Part shown: positions 2,388 to 15,380 of the stretch, piece by piece | How positions within the stretch are numbered: position 1 is the stretch's first letter | How the letters are laid out: each line of letters begins with the position of its first letter | From: a virus | Direction: 5' to 3' (one strand) | Virus record (IMG/VR): IMGVR_UViG_3300025853_000033 | Length of the DNA stretch: 64,000 bases | Position numbers and translations under genes: made by a program | Notes under the pieces: generated by a model | What the model was told of the DNA's origin: nothing | The model's input: only the letters and a program-made list of their open reading frames with translations | The model's database searches: none

Positions 2388-2605
2388 TGTACAAAAATAG
2401 TTCCAGATTTGGGTTTGGTACGATGCTTTTTAATGAAGTTCATCGCAGATGATTGAGTTCTACATTGTTTAAGATGCTCGCCATAGTATACTACCATATA
2501 TCCTTTTTGACAAGGTACAGCAGCGTATCCATCTTTAGTTACAAAACCATCACTACAATCCTTGTAAAAATTGTAAATTTCCTTTAGTTCTTTATCAGTA
2601 GTCAT
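2384..2605 (-). CDS. Conserved cyanophage hypothetical protein
   Basis: DGFVTKDGYAAVP; 4-nt overlaps on both sides. Confidence 0.6.
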   Translation of the reverse strand: MTTDKELKEIYNFYKDCSDGFVTKDGYAAVPCQKGYMVVYYGEHLKQCRTQSSAMNFIKKHRTKPKSGTIFVQ

Positions 2606-3849
2606 CGTTTGATAGTGGAGATTGCTGGTTGACCTTTTACAAATACGGTATCTACAACGTCCTGAAGACGCTTAATAGTAGAGATACCCACGTTGTCGTA
2701 GACAGGGACATGGACAAGACCAAATGATTTAGTGTAATCTTCCAGTTTGCCAGGAGTAAGAGTTCCATTCTGAATCCTCTTGATGTCATCAAGATGAAGG
2801 CGAATAACCCTACCAACAGACTGACACATCTCAATAACATTCATCTGACGCATGAGGATCAGAGAAGTGAGACCAGGAACAGAGATGCCTTCACTGAGAA
2901 TAGAATAGTGCATAACAATGAACTTCTTGTCTGGATCTGCACCAAACTCTTGAATCAGACTAAAGAATTCTTCGCGGGTAATCTTCCTATCGTTTAAGAA
3001 GGCACCATGCTTGCTAGTGATCCAAAGAAGGTCATACCCCATAGACTGCACTTCTGTCATGAAGTCTGTCTCAGCAAGCATCCGCAGCATTACCTTTGTG
3101 TTTGGTGCTGCGATCAGAACCTTCTCCATATGATCTTCATTGTAGATGGTATCAAGCAGGGTCATACAGTCCCTCTCTGCCGCCTCCTCGCCCTTCAGAC
3201 GGTCGGAACCGACGCGAATGGTGTTGATCTTAGGAGGAAGGATTGAACCGTCGTTAATGAGGCGTGGAGCGGGCACGTTGTAAATGATACGGTTGTAAAC
3301 CTCAGTATCATTCATGCCAGGTTTGGAAGAAGTGTGAGAATACTTAGGAGTAGCAGTGAAGAAATAGCAGCGGTTAGAATTAAGAGAGAGATTCCTGGTA
3401 GCACCAAAGAAGTTTTTCTTGATTGAGTTGTGCGATTCATCAAAGTAAACTGTGTCAACATGAATATTGGAATCTACAACTTTATGAAGAGAGTTGTAGG
3501 TGGTAAAGATTATACAGGACTCTGATGCTGCACGGGCAGTATTGTTAAAAAGTGCAATCTTTTCTGGTTTAGTGGTATTGAAGTAAACGGTCTCTCCCGT
3601 ATGAACATGACAAACATGGACCCAGGTAGAGGGAAGAAACTTCATAAAGTCTTCACGCAATTGCTTTGCTAGAAGAATGCGAGGAGCAACAACAACGATA
3701 GTCTTAGGACCAGACTTAAGTTGCTCAAGTGCATCTGCAACCATCGTGAAGGACTTACCTGCCCCAGTGGGCATAACGATGATTCCTTTGCGAACTCGAT
3801 CCATGATGGATCGTGCTTCTGCCTGTGTCGGTCGGAGGTTAAGGGTCAT
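2602..3849 (-). CDS. SF2 DEAD/DEAH-box helicase (type III restriction Res-subunit-like)
   Basis: Q motif LRPTQ, Walker A MPTGAGKS, DESH, FTATP, motif VI QSVGRVIR. Confidence 0.9.
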   Translation of the reverse strand: MTLNLRPTQAEARSIMDRVRKGIIVMPTGAGKSFTMVADALEQLKSGPKTIVVVAPRILLAKQLREDFMKFLPSTWVHVCHVHTGETVYFNTTKPEKIALFNNTARAASESCIIFTTYNSLHKVVDSNIHVDTVYFDESHNSIKKNFFGATRNLSLNSNRCYFFTATPKYSHTSSKPGMNDTEVYNRIIYNVPAPRLINDGSILPPKINTIRVGSDRLKGEEAAERDCMTLLDTIYNEDHMEKVLIAAPNTKVMLRMLAETDFMTEVQSMGYDLLWITSKHGAFLNDRKITREEFFSLIQEFGADPDKKFIVMHYSILSEGISVPGLTSLILMRQMNVIEMCQSVGRVIRLHLDDIKRIQNGTLTPGKLEDYTKSFGLVHVPVYDNVGISTIKRLQDVVDTVFVKGQPAISTIKR

Positions 3850-3882
3850 GGGTCGTGTGCGTTGAACATACTATACAGCAAA

Positions 3883-3903
3883 ATCCCCCCGTTTGGGGGG
3901 GAT
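3883..3903 (-). terminator. GC-rich hairpin, probable intrinsic terminator after the small MTase gene
   Basis: Minus strand ATCCCCCC-CAAAC-GGGGGGAT followed by TTTG. A TATAGT -10-like hexamer lies at 3870-3875 with no good -35. Confidence 0.65.
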
Positions 3904-3907
3904 GCGA

Positions 3908-4324
3908 TCAATCCATAAATTGGTCTAATGTGATTGGTCCCATTGTACCATCAAAACGATAATGATATTCTAAAGCATTTGCACAAACATAATGATGATG
4001 GTCTGTTGGGACACCCAACCTCCTACACAACTCCTTGTGGTTATCTTCCATGAGTTCAACTGCATAAAGCATGTTATTGAGCACATGCTCTTCAGAATGG
4101 TATTTTGTCAGGACTTCAAACAGTTCAACTAAGAAGTTACCATCACCAGCACAGTTGTCGATAAAGGAAGATTCTGGATCTTTAAGAACTTTTTCTGGAA
4201 GATCACCAATCATCTTCCGAATAAGTGCAGGAGGAGTAAATACCTCCTGCGTTTGCTTGATACGCTCATCTGAGCGTTCAAGTTTAGATCCATGCTCCTT
4301 GTTGTGACTGTTCTTAGATGACAT
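3908..4324 (-). CDS. Small N6-adenine methyltransferase fragment (SAM-binding half)
   Basis: Motif X EVFTP, motif I FIDNCAGDGNFL, YAVEL, CANAL. No NPPY/DPPY catalytic motif before the stop. Confidence 0.8.
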   Translation of the reverse strand: MSSKNSHNKEHGSKLERSDERIKQTQEVFTPPALIRKMIGDLPEKVLKDPESSFIDNCAGDGNFLVELFEVLTKYHSEEHVLNNMLYAVELMEDNHKELCRRLGVPTDHHHYVCANALEYHYRFDGTMGPITLDQFMD

Positions 4325-7300
4325 TCTTTTCCTCCAAATATTTTACCTCCTCTTCAGTAAAATTGAATTGATCAACAAGGTTGTTATAGTCCTTAATGTG
4401 AGGTACTTCCGCATTCTTAATAGCAGCAGTATATCCCGCAGTTTTTTTATAGTTATCAATATAAAACTGAATGAGTTTATTATCAAAAATCTTACTAAGG
4501 GCATTCCCCTCTTCTTCTGAAGTAATAGGACACCAAACATTAAGCATACCAACATATCCATTTGAGATAAACTTGTGCTTTTTGTACGTGCGGGAGTATC
4601 CTACAATAAACTTCAACACTTCACCAGTAGTAGGAATGACATTTGTACGAGCAATAAAATTACCAGATTGATAAACCTCATACTTACCATCAGGAACATA
4701 TTCACTCTTGGCAATGTCCTGACCCATCTTCAAGGGAATGCGAGGATGCATTGAATTGGCAATTTTGTTGAGAATAGAATGCTTAAGTGCAGCATCTCCA
4801 ATGAGAGGAAGACCATCTCGCAAATCCCAAGTAAAAGAACCATCATGAGTAATAACATGAGTTTTACCTTGATATGGTTCATTTGTAAGATGCCAACGGC
4901 AAATGGCAACACCTTCGACAAAATAATCATTTGCAGTATAATCGATCAGTTTTAGATTATACTTTGTAGAGAACAATTTAAGGAACTTCTTACCTTTACC
5001 AGTTGTACCCAGAACAGAGGAAGGAGTAACCTCACACATGTCTCCACCAGGAGCAGTAAGTTCAAGATGTTGCTCTACAATAATTGGCCAAAGTTTATTG
5101 TTTTTTGCCTTCTTAGTGGGATCTTTATAGGGTGGATTAGCAATAATAGCAGTGAACTTCATATCAGGATTCGAATCAACAATATCTACAACATCATTTA
5201 TATATTTTACACGATTACGGTGACTATCACAACTCTCCCAAACAGTAATACTATTTGGATCCAGGTCCCTTTCAAGAAGGCGAGCAGTATGAGATCCACT
5301 AGGATCTCCAAACATATAAATTTTAGATAGATCTTTACAATCATCAAGCATAGAATCCAAAAGATCTGTGGGAATATGCCTTTGCATTTGTGAAGACACA
5401 CTGTACTTATCTAATGTTTTTGCCTTAGACTCTTTAAACTGCATTTTTATAGAAGAACTAAGCATCAGGATTTTGCCATTGATTGCATTCTTACCACTAG
5501 GATTTTTGGCAATAACTTTTTCAAGAATTTTATAATGATCGCTAGTAATATTTTTATAAACTTCAGTTTCAATAATAGAGTTAATTGTACACACTTTAAT
5601 GTCTTCAGAAATAAGATAAGTCATAACAAGAGGAATAGACTCTAAAAGTGCCTTAACCGTCTTTACCCGTTGTGTTTCTGGATTGTCCGATTTTTCTTTA
5701 TTTTCTTTTTGCCTGGATTCACAACTTTTATTATTAACACCCACATTATTAGTATTAAGTTGACTGTTATCAATCTCATCGATTAGATTTGTTTCCAAAG
5801 CAAAATCGGAAAAATCAATATCATTAAGATCAAGTCTACTTACAATATTAGCAAAACTAGAATTTGTATCATCACAAATTGTACACAAAATTTCATCAAT
5901 CTTATTCTGATCTAATTGGATAAACCCATTCATCCAATCATTAATACTATCAACAAAGTCTAGCATTTCATATTGTGCCAATTCTGGTTCAATATCAGTT
6001 GCTTTTTGATAGGATTCGCAAATAACACGAAGTCCACGTTCTGCATCAAAATCAATAACATCCCAATCATGATCTGCAGATCCTCCACGAAAAGAAAATT
6101 GCTCCCAAAACTCTTTTGATTCTCCTCCACGGCAATTGATAACAGTATCAATGTATTTGCAAGTCATACCAAGAACATTAGCACTACATGTAAGAATAAG
6201 TGCTTTAGAATTGCGGGCACAAAAATTATTGATCGTATCTTGATCTTCATTAGTATCTCCAGTAACCACAAGAGTTGGAATGTAACATTCTACAATTTTT
6301 TTAAAGGCATGACACTCACCAACTCCTTTCATCGCCATCATTTGATAGTTACCTTGAAACAAACGATTATTAAGTCGAAGTCTAGATGTTTCTGGTCCAT
6401 AAAATTTTACAGCGTAAGCACGAGGAAGAGAATCATAAAGAAACTCAGAATCTTTTCCTTTTTTCTTTTCTTTCAGAGTAAAAATATTACTCATGGCATC
6501 TGGATCATCACCAAAAATCTTTTTATATTCTTCACATTCATACTTAGCAAAATGAATCCTCATCTTAGGACGAGGTTTTTCAAAAAGTCCCTTACGAACA
6601 TCCAATTGCTCATGCCAATACGAATATACAAAACTATTTTCATTGTTAAAATCAGGAGACAGTTTATCTGCTGTGCCAGTGATTAAAAGAAGTTTAACTG
6701 TCTCACCATTGGCAGCATTGAGTTTTTCATGCACAGTTGTAAATTGTTCTGCCCTACCACCAACATGTGCCTCATCAAGTGCAATGAAGTCAATTTTATA
6801 GTTACAAATGGTATTAATACGATTAGAGATGCTTTGAACTGTTCCCCAAAGAACAATATTTACACCATCATGTTCCATCCAGAACTCAAGTTCCTCTTCC
6901 CATTTACTGTCTTGAACATTAATAAGTTTAACAGATGGAAAATATTCTTGATCATCAATCCAACCTTCTTCTGGAGAAGTTGTCCGACAACAAAGAAGAG
7001 TCAACTTATAATTAGCACTTACGATATGACTGAGTGTCATGATACATTTCCCAGAACGACATTTAGCGTTCAGGAGAAACTCTTTCCAAATTTCCCATGC
7101 AGATTTAATTTTTACAAGAAATTTTTCTTGAAAATGCATAAGATTGAGTTCTTTTGCAGGTTCAACAAAAACTTCATCAAATAATTTACGAACAATAAAA
7201 GAACAAGTTTGCACAATTTGATCTACAGAATACCCAGTGAGAATAAAACATTCATTTGACCCCCTACCAGGATTTGAAACGCAATTTGGGAACAATTTAA

Positions 7301-7565
7301 GATCTTTATGACATTTTTTATCACAACCAGATCCAGTTGCAGAAATTCCAAACCAAAAAGTTGTATGTTTTTCACCAATAAGATTCCAATATCCAATGAG
7401 TTTTGTATACTCTACATCATTATGCCGCTTTTCTTTCCTAGAATCTTTAGTTTGTCCAAAAAAGAATGCTTTACTATCCAAATTAATTAGCAAATAAATC
7501 CAAGTATTAATCTTGCCACCACTAAGGTCAAACTCTGTTTGATTTTGAAGAAGAGAAGTAATCAC
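4314..7565 (-). CDS. Multidomain RM-like protein: GIY-YIG-like nuclease / SF2 helicase / N6-MTase catalytic region / putative TRD
   Basis: WIYLLIN...FFFGQT...R..RH (GIY-YIG-like), NAKCRSGKC, DEAH, ITGTA, QFSFRG, IIANPPY. The track start (TTG at 7619) lies inside a -35 box; the GTG at 7565 is a more plausible start. Confidence 0.75.
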   Translation of the reverse strand: MITSLLQNQTEFDLSGGKINTWIYLLINLDSKAFFFGQTKDSRKEKRHNDVEYTKLIGYWNLIGEKHTTFWFGISATGSGCDKKCHKDLKLFPNCVSNPGRGSNECFILTGYSVDQIVQTCSFIVRKLFDEVFVEPAKELNLMHFQEKFLVKIKSAWEIWKEFLLNAKCRSGKCIMTLSHIVSANYKLTLLCCRTTSPEEGWIDDQEYFPSVKLINVQDSKWEEELEFWMEHDGVNIVLWGTVQSISNRINTICNYKIDFIALDEAHVGGRAEQFTTVHEKLNAANGETVKLLLITGTADKLSPDFNNENSFVYSYWHEQLDVRKGLFEKPRPKMRIHFAKYECEEYKKIFGDDPDAMSNIFTLKEKKKGKDSEFLYDSLPRAYAVKFYGPETSRLRLNNRLFQGNYQMMAMKGVGECHAFKKIVECYIPTLVVTGDTNEDQDTINNFCARNSKALILTCSANVLGMTCKYIDTVINCRGGESKEFWEQFSFRGGSADHDWDVIDFDAERGLRVICESYQKATDIEPELAQYEMLDFVDSINDWMNGFIQLDQNKIDEILCTICDDTNSSFANIVSRLDLNDIDFSDFALETNLIDEIDNSQLNTNNVGVNNKSCESRQKENKEKSDNPETQRVKTVKALLESIPLVMTYLISEDIKVCTINSIIETEVYKNITSDHYKILEKVIAKNPSGKNAINGKILMLSSSIKMQFKESKAKTLDKYSVSSQMQRHIPTDLLDSMLDDCKDLSKIYMFGDPSGSHTARLLERDLDPNSITVWESCDSHRNRVKYINDVVDIVDSNPDMKFTAIIANPPYKDPTKKAKNNKLWPIIVEQHLELTAPGGDMCEVTPSSVLGTTGKGKKFLKLFSTKYNLKLIDYTANDYFVEGVAICRWHLTNEPYQGKTHVITHDGSFTWDLRDGLPLIGDAALKHSILNKIANSMHPRIPLKMGQDIAKSEYVPDGKYEVYQSGNFIARTNVIPTTGEVLKFIVGYSRTYKKHKFISNGYVGMLNVWCPITSEEEGNALSKIFDNKLIQFYIDNYKKTAGYTAAIKNAEVPHIKDYNNLVDQFNFTEEEVKYLEEKNVI

Positions 7566-7589
7566 AAGAGAATGATTCAGAACACCGTC

Positions 7590-7625
7590 ACTATAACCCA
7601 TAAAAAAGGGGGGTGTCAACCCCCC
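7590..7625 (-). promoter_or_regulatory. Sigma70-type promoter whose -35 is the loop of a terminator hairpin
   Basis: Minus strand GGGGGG-TTGACA-CCCCCC-TTTTTT, then TATAGT at 7590-7595 (18-bp spacer). Confidence 0.75.
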
Positions 7626-7634
7626 TGTTCCACC

Positions 7635-15047: not shown

Positions 15048-15126
15048 ACTACTAAATCCGTTTTTAATATTTAGTTTTGTAGGAGGGCGCTCCCATATAA
15101 GAAAGACCTTTAATATTCCCCCCAAG

Positions 15127-15210
15127 TGCGAGTAGGGAGACTTGAACTCCCACGGGATTACTCCCAACAGATTTTAAGTCTGGTGCGTCTACCGATTCCG
15201 CCATACTCGC
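15127..15210 (-). tRNA. tRNA-Leu(UAA), copy 1, CCA not encoded
   Basis: GCGAGTA/TACTCGC acceptor stem, anticodon arm CCAGA-CTTAAAA-TCTGT, long variable arm GGGA-GTAA-TCCC, GTTCAAG T-loop. Confidence 0.95.
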
Positions 15211-15214
15211 ATTT

Positions 15215-15289
15215 TGGTAGGACTGGAGGGAATTGAACCCTCTTCACACCGTTATAAGCAGTGGGCCTTAACCAATAGGCGACAGTCCC
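15215..15289 (-). tRNA. tRNA-Ile(UAU), CCA encoded
   Basis: GGGACTG/CAGTCCT acceptor stem, anticodon arm CACTG-CTTATAA-CGGTG, GGTTCAATT T-loop, 3' ACCA. Confidence 0.93.
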
Positions 15290-15292
15290 GTT

Positions 15293-15380
15293 TGGTAGGA
15301 GTAGGGAGACTTGAACTCCCACGGGCGTAATGCCCAACAGATTTTAAGTCTGGTGTGTCTACCGATTCCACCATACTCCC
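15293..15380 (-). tRNA. tRNA-Leu(UAA), copy 2, CCA encoded
   Basis: GGGAGTA/TACTCCT acceptor stem, same anticodon arm as copy 1, variable arm GGGC-ATTAC-GCCC, 3' ACCA. Confidence 0.95.

Follow-up and report, generated by a model that had tools for sequence, protein, structure and literature searches.

Overlapping cyanophage genes for a Type ISP-like methyltransferase and a free-standing cofactor-binding half point to a probable two-piece N6-adenine methyltransferase family

Can a DNA methyltransferase (MTase) of the amino class be built in nature from two separately encoded polypeptides? This question is raised by two overlapping genes in a stretch of viral DNA of 64,000 nucleotides (IMG/VR record IMGVR_UViG_3300025853_000033), referred to here, at its full length, as the window. 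An earlier note on this DNA had read the pair as a split adenine MTase, in which a large protein with the catalytic motif NPPY (motif IV) and a degenerate binding site for S-adenosylmethionine (SAM) is supplied with its SAM-binding half in trans by the product of the next, small gene. For the family as a whole, a two-piece N6-adenine MTase is the simplest account of our observations and, as a prediction from sequence, a well supported one, with a gene for the catalytic half and target recognition domain (TRD) coming first and a gene for the cofactor half second. The large protein of the window, however, is itself predicted to be complete. The two genes are as follows.

4314..7601, minus strand: large gene, 1095 amino acids (aa), a predicted single-chain Type ISP-like fusion
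3908..4324, minus strand: small gene, 138 aa, a predicted free-standing SAM-binding half, recognised by its motifs and by PHROG, Pfam and profile matches

The small protein carries motif X (EVFTP, 4232-4246), motif I (FIDNCAGDGNF, with DNCAGDGNF at 4133-4159), motif II (AVELMEDN) and motif III (VCANALEY) and ends before any motif IV, with neither that motif nor a TRD in the chain, just as had been reported. It belongs to phrog_4376 (E 5e-59), and the Pfam family N6_Mtase (PF02384) matches it at 19.0 bits, just below the cut-off of 20.4. Over their first 110-160 residues, CamA (E 2e-11), M.BseCI, HsdM, BrxX and BsaXI are matched by a profile of the small family, and the match stops just ahead of their motif IV. 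When 1.8 billion representatives were scanned in full with the small family, 1005 matches were obtained at E < 1e-3, mostly free-standing and 100-200 aa long. Among 23 free-standing homologues, P31, G60, G62, D94 and F124 are invariant and R21, E27, F29, T30 and N95 nearly so; the conserved residues occupy the positions of motifs X, I and II, and D or N is kept at the motif III position. The small protein is thus a predicted canonical, free-standing SAM-binding half of the CamA/BseCI type, with motifs X and I-III. A few relatives hold the same half within a longer chain: P0087 has the usual single-chain gamma order, a small-like half followed by FDVIVGNPPF; P0217 has two tandem small-like halves ahead of NPPY; and P0084 and P0162 are permuted, with NPP(Y/F) at about residue 10 and a C-terminal small-like half. 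Each of these permuted fusions is a singleton that may be a frameshift artefact, and P0084 is without full-length relatives.

With regard to the company that the small gene keeps, the pairing supposed in the earlier note proved general: across phages the small gene lies almost universally beside a motif-IV gene. A survey with the small gene returned 80 IMG/VR loci, 78 of them usable. The ORF (open reading frame) that ends at the small-gene start contains N[PY]P[YF] in 58 of the 78, and in 26 loci the motif falls within the first 25 residues. The other 20 comprise loci whose upstream ORF has a motif-IV variant (NAPY, NSPF, NFPF or NFPY), loci in which the methylase lies one gene further up, behind a 190-aa ORF or a helicase, contig ends, and loci whose upstream methylase ORF fell outside the distance window of the survey because the first possible start of the small ORF is further upstream. 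A single locus (L043) combines ample upstream sequence with no methylase match. The overlap with the small gene is typically 11-26 nt. Conversely, a survey with the large protein gave 65 loci; wherever the downstream sequence suffices, the methylase part is followed by the small gene, except in L135. The module is not confined to cyanophages, since the T4-like Klebsiella phage KpV477 carries it (L010, genes 030-028): a canonical GIY-YIG domain fused to the NPPY gene, then a 110-aa ORF, then a 153-aa gene for the small half.

This linkage bears on the idea that the small protein has nothing to do with the neighbouring methylase and serves in counter-defence, as a factor that sequesters SAM or, as a dominant-negative mimic, poisons methylase or restriction complexes of the host. 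SAM depletion is a known phage counter-defence strategy, exemplified by the SAM lyase of T3, and a small, abundant, phage-borne family labelled 'unknown function' would fit such a role. Across Kyanoviridae and a Klebsiella T4-like phage, however, the small gene keeps strictly to its place beside a motif-IV gene, with start and stop overlapping, which speaks against such a role, and among PADLOC and anti-defence families the small protein has no match beyond generic methylases. We therefore regard a counter-defence role as very improbable.

Evidence for a true split comes from sister phages (L030-L036), in which the gene order is tail fibre, an NPPY-first ORF of 279-284 aa with NPPY at residues 8-12, small gene and helicase, that is, the slot and synteny of the window minus everything before motif IV. 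Identity to the window is 61% for the NPPY-first ORF (window residues 820-1101), 63-67% for the small protein and 70% for the helicase, and tblastn with the N-terminal domain, motor, coupler and cis SAM half of the window protein found no match in these loci at E up to 10. One such contig, 246.5 kb long and with terminal repeats, is a genome whose completeness is rated at 100%; it carries one small gene, and its only match to the large protein is the NPPY-first ORF, with no cis SAM half. Between two subtypes (dS about 0.74), the ratio of nonsynonymous to synonymous substitution rates (dN/dS) comes to 0.064 in the catalytic-only ORF; the value of the small gene is 0.071. Because these ratios are low and the complete genome lacks any other SAM-half match, the catalytic half without a cis cofactor half is kept by purifying selection, always beside the small gene. 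The arrangement recurs in about twenty more loci, where an ORF of 186-202 aa has NPPY at residue 9-17 and the small gene comes next, and also in P-SSM2 (036/037) and S-CAM7 (gp076/gp077). A catalytic chain without a SAM half, next to a gene that could supply one, is therefore found in L030-L036 and in about 20 P-SSM2_036-like loci and not in the window, and the earlier proposal of a split MTase stands for the sister phages, whose partner is without any N-terminal half, while for the window it is not supported, given the cis half that the large protein possesses.

Taken together, it is probable that the small protein binds SAM and serves the MTase encoded next to it as a functional subunit in trans, that the large protein of the window is complete and that the family includes a natural two-piece methylase. 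In phages with an NPPY-first gene, the small protein would complete the Rossmann sheet, placing strands 3-2-1 beside 4-5-7-6. Two other views of the small gene can be weighed against the same loci. The first is that the ORF, which stops just short of the motif IV position, is a decaying remnant of a full-length methylase gene; hundreds of same-length homologues that keep the invariant SAM-site residues, a dN/dS of 0.07 and a strong ribosome-binding site of its own leave this view with next to no plausibility. The second is that the small protein completes no fold and is an accessory or regulatory SAM subunit, acting on a complete MTase or on the superfamily 2 (SF2) helicase as a sensor or as a switch between methylation and translocation or cleavage. 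Type I, III and IIG enzymes are under allosteric control by SAM, the small gene lies beside complete methylases as often as beside truncated ones, the 415-aa helicase follows it in most loci and directly precedes it in two (L043, L046), and the tandem N-terminal halves of P0217 stand before one catalytic half, all of which would suit such a subunit. An accessory role nevertheless leaves unexplained the NPPY-first genes that are under strong purifying selection in a complete genome devoid of any N-terminal half, and a three-stranded half-Rossmann with an exposed strand-1 edge would hardly be stable alone, so that we consider this role unlikely.

What, then, is the SAM half of the large protein in the window? 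The relevant parts of that protein, numbered on the 1095-aa product, are the following.

5163..5381, minus strand: cis SAM-binding half, residues 741-813; motif X helix, strand 1 with DPSGSH (5289-5306), strand 2 with WE, and strand 3
4317..5162, minus strand: catalytic half and TRD, residues 814-1095, starting at an invariant Met (ATG 5160-5162); NPPY at 5127-5138, C-terminal domain beta-rich

All structural statements on the large protein derive from one predicted AlphaFold2 model, with a mean pLDDT (predicted local distance difference test) of 75.9, a pTM (predicted template modelling score) of 0.65 and a pLDDT of ~90 in the N-terminal half of the MTase. Its sequence includes IANPPYKD, a motif X-like RHIPTD and a motif I-like MFGDPSGSH; the canonical motif I, (D/E)PxxGxGxF, is absent, its place being taken by DPSGSH in the window and DPxGxH in the family. 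In the earlier note this departure had been taken as degeneracy made good in trans, and one could suppose accordingly that the pair is a strict obligate heterodimer, in which the full-length large protein, its own SAM half being dead, relies on the small one for SAM binding. Several features fit that supposition. The match of the large protein to the Pfam family Eco57I (PF07669), at 31.7 bits against a cut-off of 25.3, covers profile positions 60-171 only; the motif III position varies among D, G, A and N in relatives of the large protein, as against the D/N kept in the small one; no glycine loop is present in the cis segments of Bellamy gp86, S-SKS1 215 and KpV477 030; and the small gene is retained beside large-type genes in the 65-locus survey, with the one exception given above.

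Conservation and modelling of the cis half argue in the opposite direction. Between clades that share about 30% identity overall, the pattern QxxIPxxL...(F/V)GDPSGS(H/C)...VWE...H...M-KFT...NPPY is kept. Cis halves that are 23-76% identical to that of the window share without exception the D, P, G and H of DPxGxH, the strand-2 residues W and E, one His, and a Met and Phe before strand 4, and DPxGxH, WE and H are unchanged even where identity is only 23-33%, unlike what is seen in decayed sites. In the model the cis half (pLDDT about 83-93) opens with helix X, after which come strands 1, 2 and 3 with a helix between each and the next; strands 1-3 (residues 761-808, pLDDT about 90) superpose on the cofactor halves of TaqI and CamA. 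A decayed site is disfavoured because the signature is invariant across such distant relatives, and the slot that the small protein would take on the large one seems already filled because the cis segment models as strands 1-3. The claim of a degenerate half did not survive these comparisons: as modelled, the cis half is a compact, divergent variant and not a decayed one, and the large protein is a structurally complete gamma-class N6-adenine MTase with motifs X, I-III and IV-VIII and the TRD, in that order, in one chain. Replacement of a non-binding cis half by the small protein is the option least compatible with the model and with conservation in the window, and a strict heterodimer is, in our estimate, improbable.

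If the small protein is instead a trans-acting subunit within a family that includes two-piece enzymes, the window would hold a catalytic/TRD module with two possible SAM halves, the cis variant and the free canonical one. Either the free half would pair with a catalytic-only product, or it would bind to the complete enzyme in an accessory role. The reaction would likely yield N6-methyladenine in DNA, and the motor and nuclease-like domain ahead of the MTase suggest a translocating, restriction-type activity of the same specificity. These domains, and the linker that joins them to the MTase, are arranged as follows.

7182..7505, minus strand: N-terminal domain, residues 33-140; modelled as beta-beta-alpha-alpha-beta-alpha, with motifs WIY-x10-FFGQT, KRH, D..xH and NECF
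5877..7154, minus strand: SF2 helicase-like motor with two RecA-like lobes, residues 150-575; Walker A 7044-7067, DEAH 6765-6776, TGT, QxxFRGGS
5406..5681, minus strand: helical linker ('coupler') from motor to MTase, residues 641-732, modelled as helices; the LlaBIII alignment covers model residues 127-934

A stretch at residues 601-639 is disordered in the model. Homologues of the large protein number 59 (605-1927 aa), and in the 46 that were aligned the motor motifs are Walker A AKCRAGKS, DE(A/C)H, (S/T)GTA and QxxFRGGS, with the helicase motifs and DPSGS/NPPY at least 90% conserved. The window reads AKCRSGKC, DEAH, TGT and QxxFRGGS. Its Walker A had been singled out as a variant, and GKC is indeed present; the family form is a regular [AG]x4GK[ST], however, and the change of the final Ser to Cys is the sole departure from that pattern in the window. 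GKC is common to the window and the relative nearest to it; L121 acquired it independently, and GKN is found in two loci.

By sequence, the large protein matches phrog_22930 (E 1e-149) and phrog_3689 (E 4e-32); it matches no defence system or named family in PADLOC and NCBIfam, and a search of PDB sequences with its MTase domain found nothing. By structure, Foldseek places LlaBIII (4xqk) first (E 1.7e-14, 1050 columns), with LlaGI (5ffj) also among the top matches, consistent with the Type ISP-like single-chain build that had been suggested for this protein. VIA-align gives RadD at Z 19.0 (model residues 151-699), Snf2-type remodellers at Z about 17, CamA at Z 18.0 (736-1081 against chain residues 26-577), M.TaqI at Z 17.6 (root-mean-square deviation 2.8 over 180; 741-1053 against 21-398) and LlaBIII at Z 17.5. 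As modelled, the large protein has a Type ISP-like architecture with a different nuclease-type domain, and comparison with Type ISP is the best available description of it. Elsewhere the large multi-domain protein is itself divided between two genes, in L047 and L083 between motif X and motif I and in L021-L029 between motor and coupler; one such alternative break leaves the motif X helix at the end of the helicase-coupler protein.

The GIY-YIG-like N-terminus pointed out in the earlier note is supported by relatives and by protein-language features. In the window itself, this domain has no match to the GIY-YIG clan in Pfam at E up to 10. At the same position, L075 and L082 match T5orf172 (PF10544) at 26.3 and 25.6 bits (cut-off 20), L064 matches MUG113 (PF13455) at 20.9 bits, under its cut-off of 22.3, and a protein-language (ESM) feature search with residues 30-160 reached T5orf172/MUG113 clusters at 0.91, a lead and not proof. 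The family alignment of the domain keeps (N/W)IY, F..G(Q/E)T, an Arg-His pair, D..(I)H and E.F, which is the pattern of T5orf172/GIY-YIG ('Uri'), with the second signature Tyr replaced by Phe across the family. The modelled order of secondary structure fits the beta-beta-alpha-alpha-beta-alpha GIY-YIG core, and the first Tyr, the Arg-His pair and the Glu are conserved. T5orf172 has been treated as a Uri endonuclease family (PMC7824862). We accept the domain as GIY-YIG-superfamily-like and as a putative nuclease.

How might one locus use two SAM halves? Every fused partner gene examined (loci L011-L090, with 60 to 830 residues upstream) has a Met 7-10 residues before NPPY, which in the window is the ATG at 5160-5162. 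This Met coincides with the start of the NPPY-first ORFs of sister phages, and the single-chain gamma-order proteins P0087, P0217 and CamA are without it. The invariant Met may be an internal start or a relic of gene fusion. No Shine-Dalgarno motif precedes it; genuine NPPY-first starts are also without one, so that this is not decisive. Elsewhere in the 64-kb window there is no NPPY-first gene. A tentative proposal, which we hold to be possible and still rather doubtful, is that one catalytic/TRD module serves both SAM halves by way of an internal start at the Met, so that restriction and modification share one specificity. Internal initiation would give a catalytic-only isoform from the large gene; joined by the free small half, this isoform would be a methylase without a motor, for modification only, and the translocating, nuclease-type form would be the full-length chain, which uses the variant half of its own. 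If true, the split would be a device for making restriction and modification activities from one DNA-reading domain and one operon.

A number of points weigh against the small protein as a trans-acting, fold-completing subunit. The modelled large protein has a confident and conserved SAM half, so that its fold is complete without the small protein. A profile comparison with hhalign gave no link between the small family and the cis half (probability 1%). In P0088, P0175 and P0089 the small-like domain is fused to regions without motif IV, and the domain can therefore exist in other contexts. Folding of P0084, as a stand-in for the catalytic half plus the small protein, gave a pLDDT of about 95 for the small-like domain and about 30 for the catalytic half and is uninformative on assembly; deeper MAFFT alignments for this fold were discarded, as they misplaced catalytic segments onto the small-domain region. 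The nuclease role of the N-terminal domain is putative, and its second GIY-YIG Tyr is Phe. Finally, interaction of the small and large proteins, SAM binding and methylation are all inferred.

The layout of the locus is consistent with joint expression of the two genes. The large ORF runs from 7619 to 4314 (4314..7619) and the small one occupies 3908..4324, both on the minus strand, sharing the 11 nt at 4314-4324; this overlap and all the motifs that had been quoted are present in the sequence. The large ORF has three candidate starts, TTG 7619, ATG 7601 and GTG 7565. The last of these had been taken as its 5' end and would be favoured by a promoter-like TTGACA-18-TATAGT at 7619-7590, whereas the recorded gene call places the start at ATG 7601, which gives the 1095-aa product. 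The signals and the third gene of the module are these.

7590..7626, minus strand: terminator-like G/C hairpin and T-run (7626-7607) with TTGACA in the loop and TATAGT 18 nt on, after the tail-fibre gene; upstream limit of the two-gene unit
4331..4335, minus strand: Shine-Dalgarno-like GGAGG, 6 nt 5' of the small-gene ATG, within the 3' end of the large gene
3883..3903, minus strand: terminator-like C7/G6 hairpin and T-run directly past the small-gene stop; downstream limit of the two-gene unit
2602..3849, minus strand: SF2 helicase, 415 aa, ResIII and Helicase_C; third gene of the module, kept in most related loci

Because of the 11-nt overlap, the GGAGG and the flanking hairpins, the large and small genes look like one bicistronic, translationally linked unit with hairpins at both ends. 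The downstream hairpin is followed by a TATAGT ahead of the helicase start (3860-3903, minus strand), repeating the hairpin-then-minus-10 layout of 7590-7626. The 415-aa helicase has no nuclease domain; the G+C content of the 2-4 kb stretch around it is 41%, against 31-36% in the surroundings.

A further frequent member of the module in related loci is a 187-200-aa protein of phrog_7683 ('unknown function'), seen in L006 (Bellamy gene 87), L008 (ACG-2014f gp052), L043, L046, L048 and L076. It lies between the methylase and the small gene and, in L043 and L046, at the upstream end of the cluster. Assignment of the Bellamy gp87-type neighbour (187 aa) as Mrr-like was dropped, having no support from Pfam, PDB sequences or PHROG function. 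The window itself is clearly from a T4-like cyanomyovirus, with a 1938-aa tail fibre ending in an S74 chaperone, many structural genes and a small tRNA cluster; the three tRNA genes lie at 15126-15380 (minus strand) and are Leu(TAA), Ile(TAT) and Leu(TAA). Relatives of its proteins come only from Synechococcus and Prochlorococcus myoviruses, and the phage collection holds no DNA nearly identical to it.

Were the small and catalytic halves to assemble as proposed, the family would possibly be the first natural two-piece amino-MTase, the natural splits that turned up or are otherwise known to us being C5 enzymes; a full-text literature search found no description of a naturally split N6-adenine (amino) MTase, nor of a Type ISP-like chain with a T5orf172 domain. 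The break falls exactly between the cofactor and catalytic halves, and single-chain, permuted and split relatives coexist, so that the family would exemplify the fission/fusion route proposed for circular permutation of MTases. Because both halves are 'unknown function' in PHROGs (phrog_4376 and phrog_5172), hundreds of cyanophage genomes and some enterobacterial T4-like ones are under-annotated for DNA modification. A phage-borne Type ISP-like motor-methylase with a GIY-YIG-type domain also raises the question of whether restriction-type enzymes are used against host or rival DNA, and self-assembling methylase halves with a shared TRD would be of practical interest for targeted methylation.

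Comparison with known systems places the locus between several of them. A circularly permuted, M.EcoKI-like Dam has been noted in jumbo phages (PMC7824862). The family resembles beta-class permuted amino-MTases in its coding order, IV-VIII/TRD and then X, I-III, which the rare single-chain relatives P0084 and P0162 share and P0087, in gamma order, does not; it differs in that the parts are separate genes and are Eco57I/N6_Mtase-like, not N6_N4_Mtase-like, the fused permuted forms being possibly artefactual singletons. With LlaGI and LlaBIII the window protein shares the domain order of nuclease-type domain, SF2-like motor, coupler, gamma-class MTase and TRD in one chain. Their nuclease, however, is an Mrr-type PD-(D/E)xK domain where the window has a T5orf172/GIY-YIG-like one, identity is just 11-13%, and the window gene is phage-borne and has two companions that Type ISP systems lack, a separate gene for a SAM half and another one for an SF2 helicase. 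This likeness holds at the level of fold; the biochemical hallmarks of Type ISP enzymes, namely ATP-driven translocation, DNA cleavage on collision and protection of an asymmetric site by hemimethylation, are putative for the window protein.

The MTase portion (residues 736-1081) superposes on the whole of M.TaqI and CamA, TRDs included, and the small family corresponds to the N-terminal part of CamA and M.BseCI. These three enzymes are single chains with one canonical SAM half, whereas here the canonical half is free and the cis half is a DPxGxH variant that is absent in sister phages. M.AquI is a naturally split C5 MTase, and both it and M.EcoHK31I are broken at a different point, near motif IX or the TRD. 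The family described here resembles the two in making, as proposed, one MTase fold from two polypeptides encoded side by side; M.EcoHK31I is cited as a naturally split C5 MTase in PMC3439449. The family differs in that the break lies between motifs III and IV of an amino-MTase, the gene order is permuted, and the catalytic piece often shares its chain with nuclease-like and motor domains.

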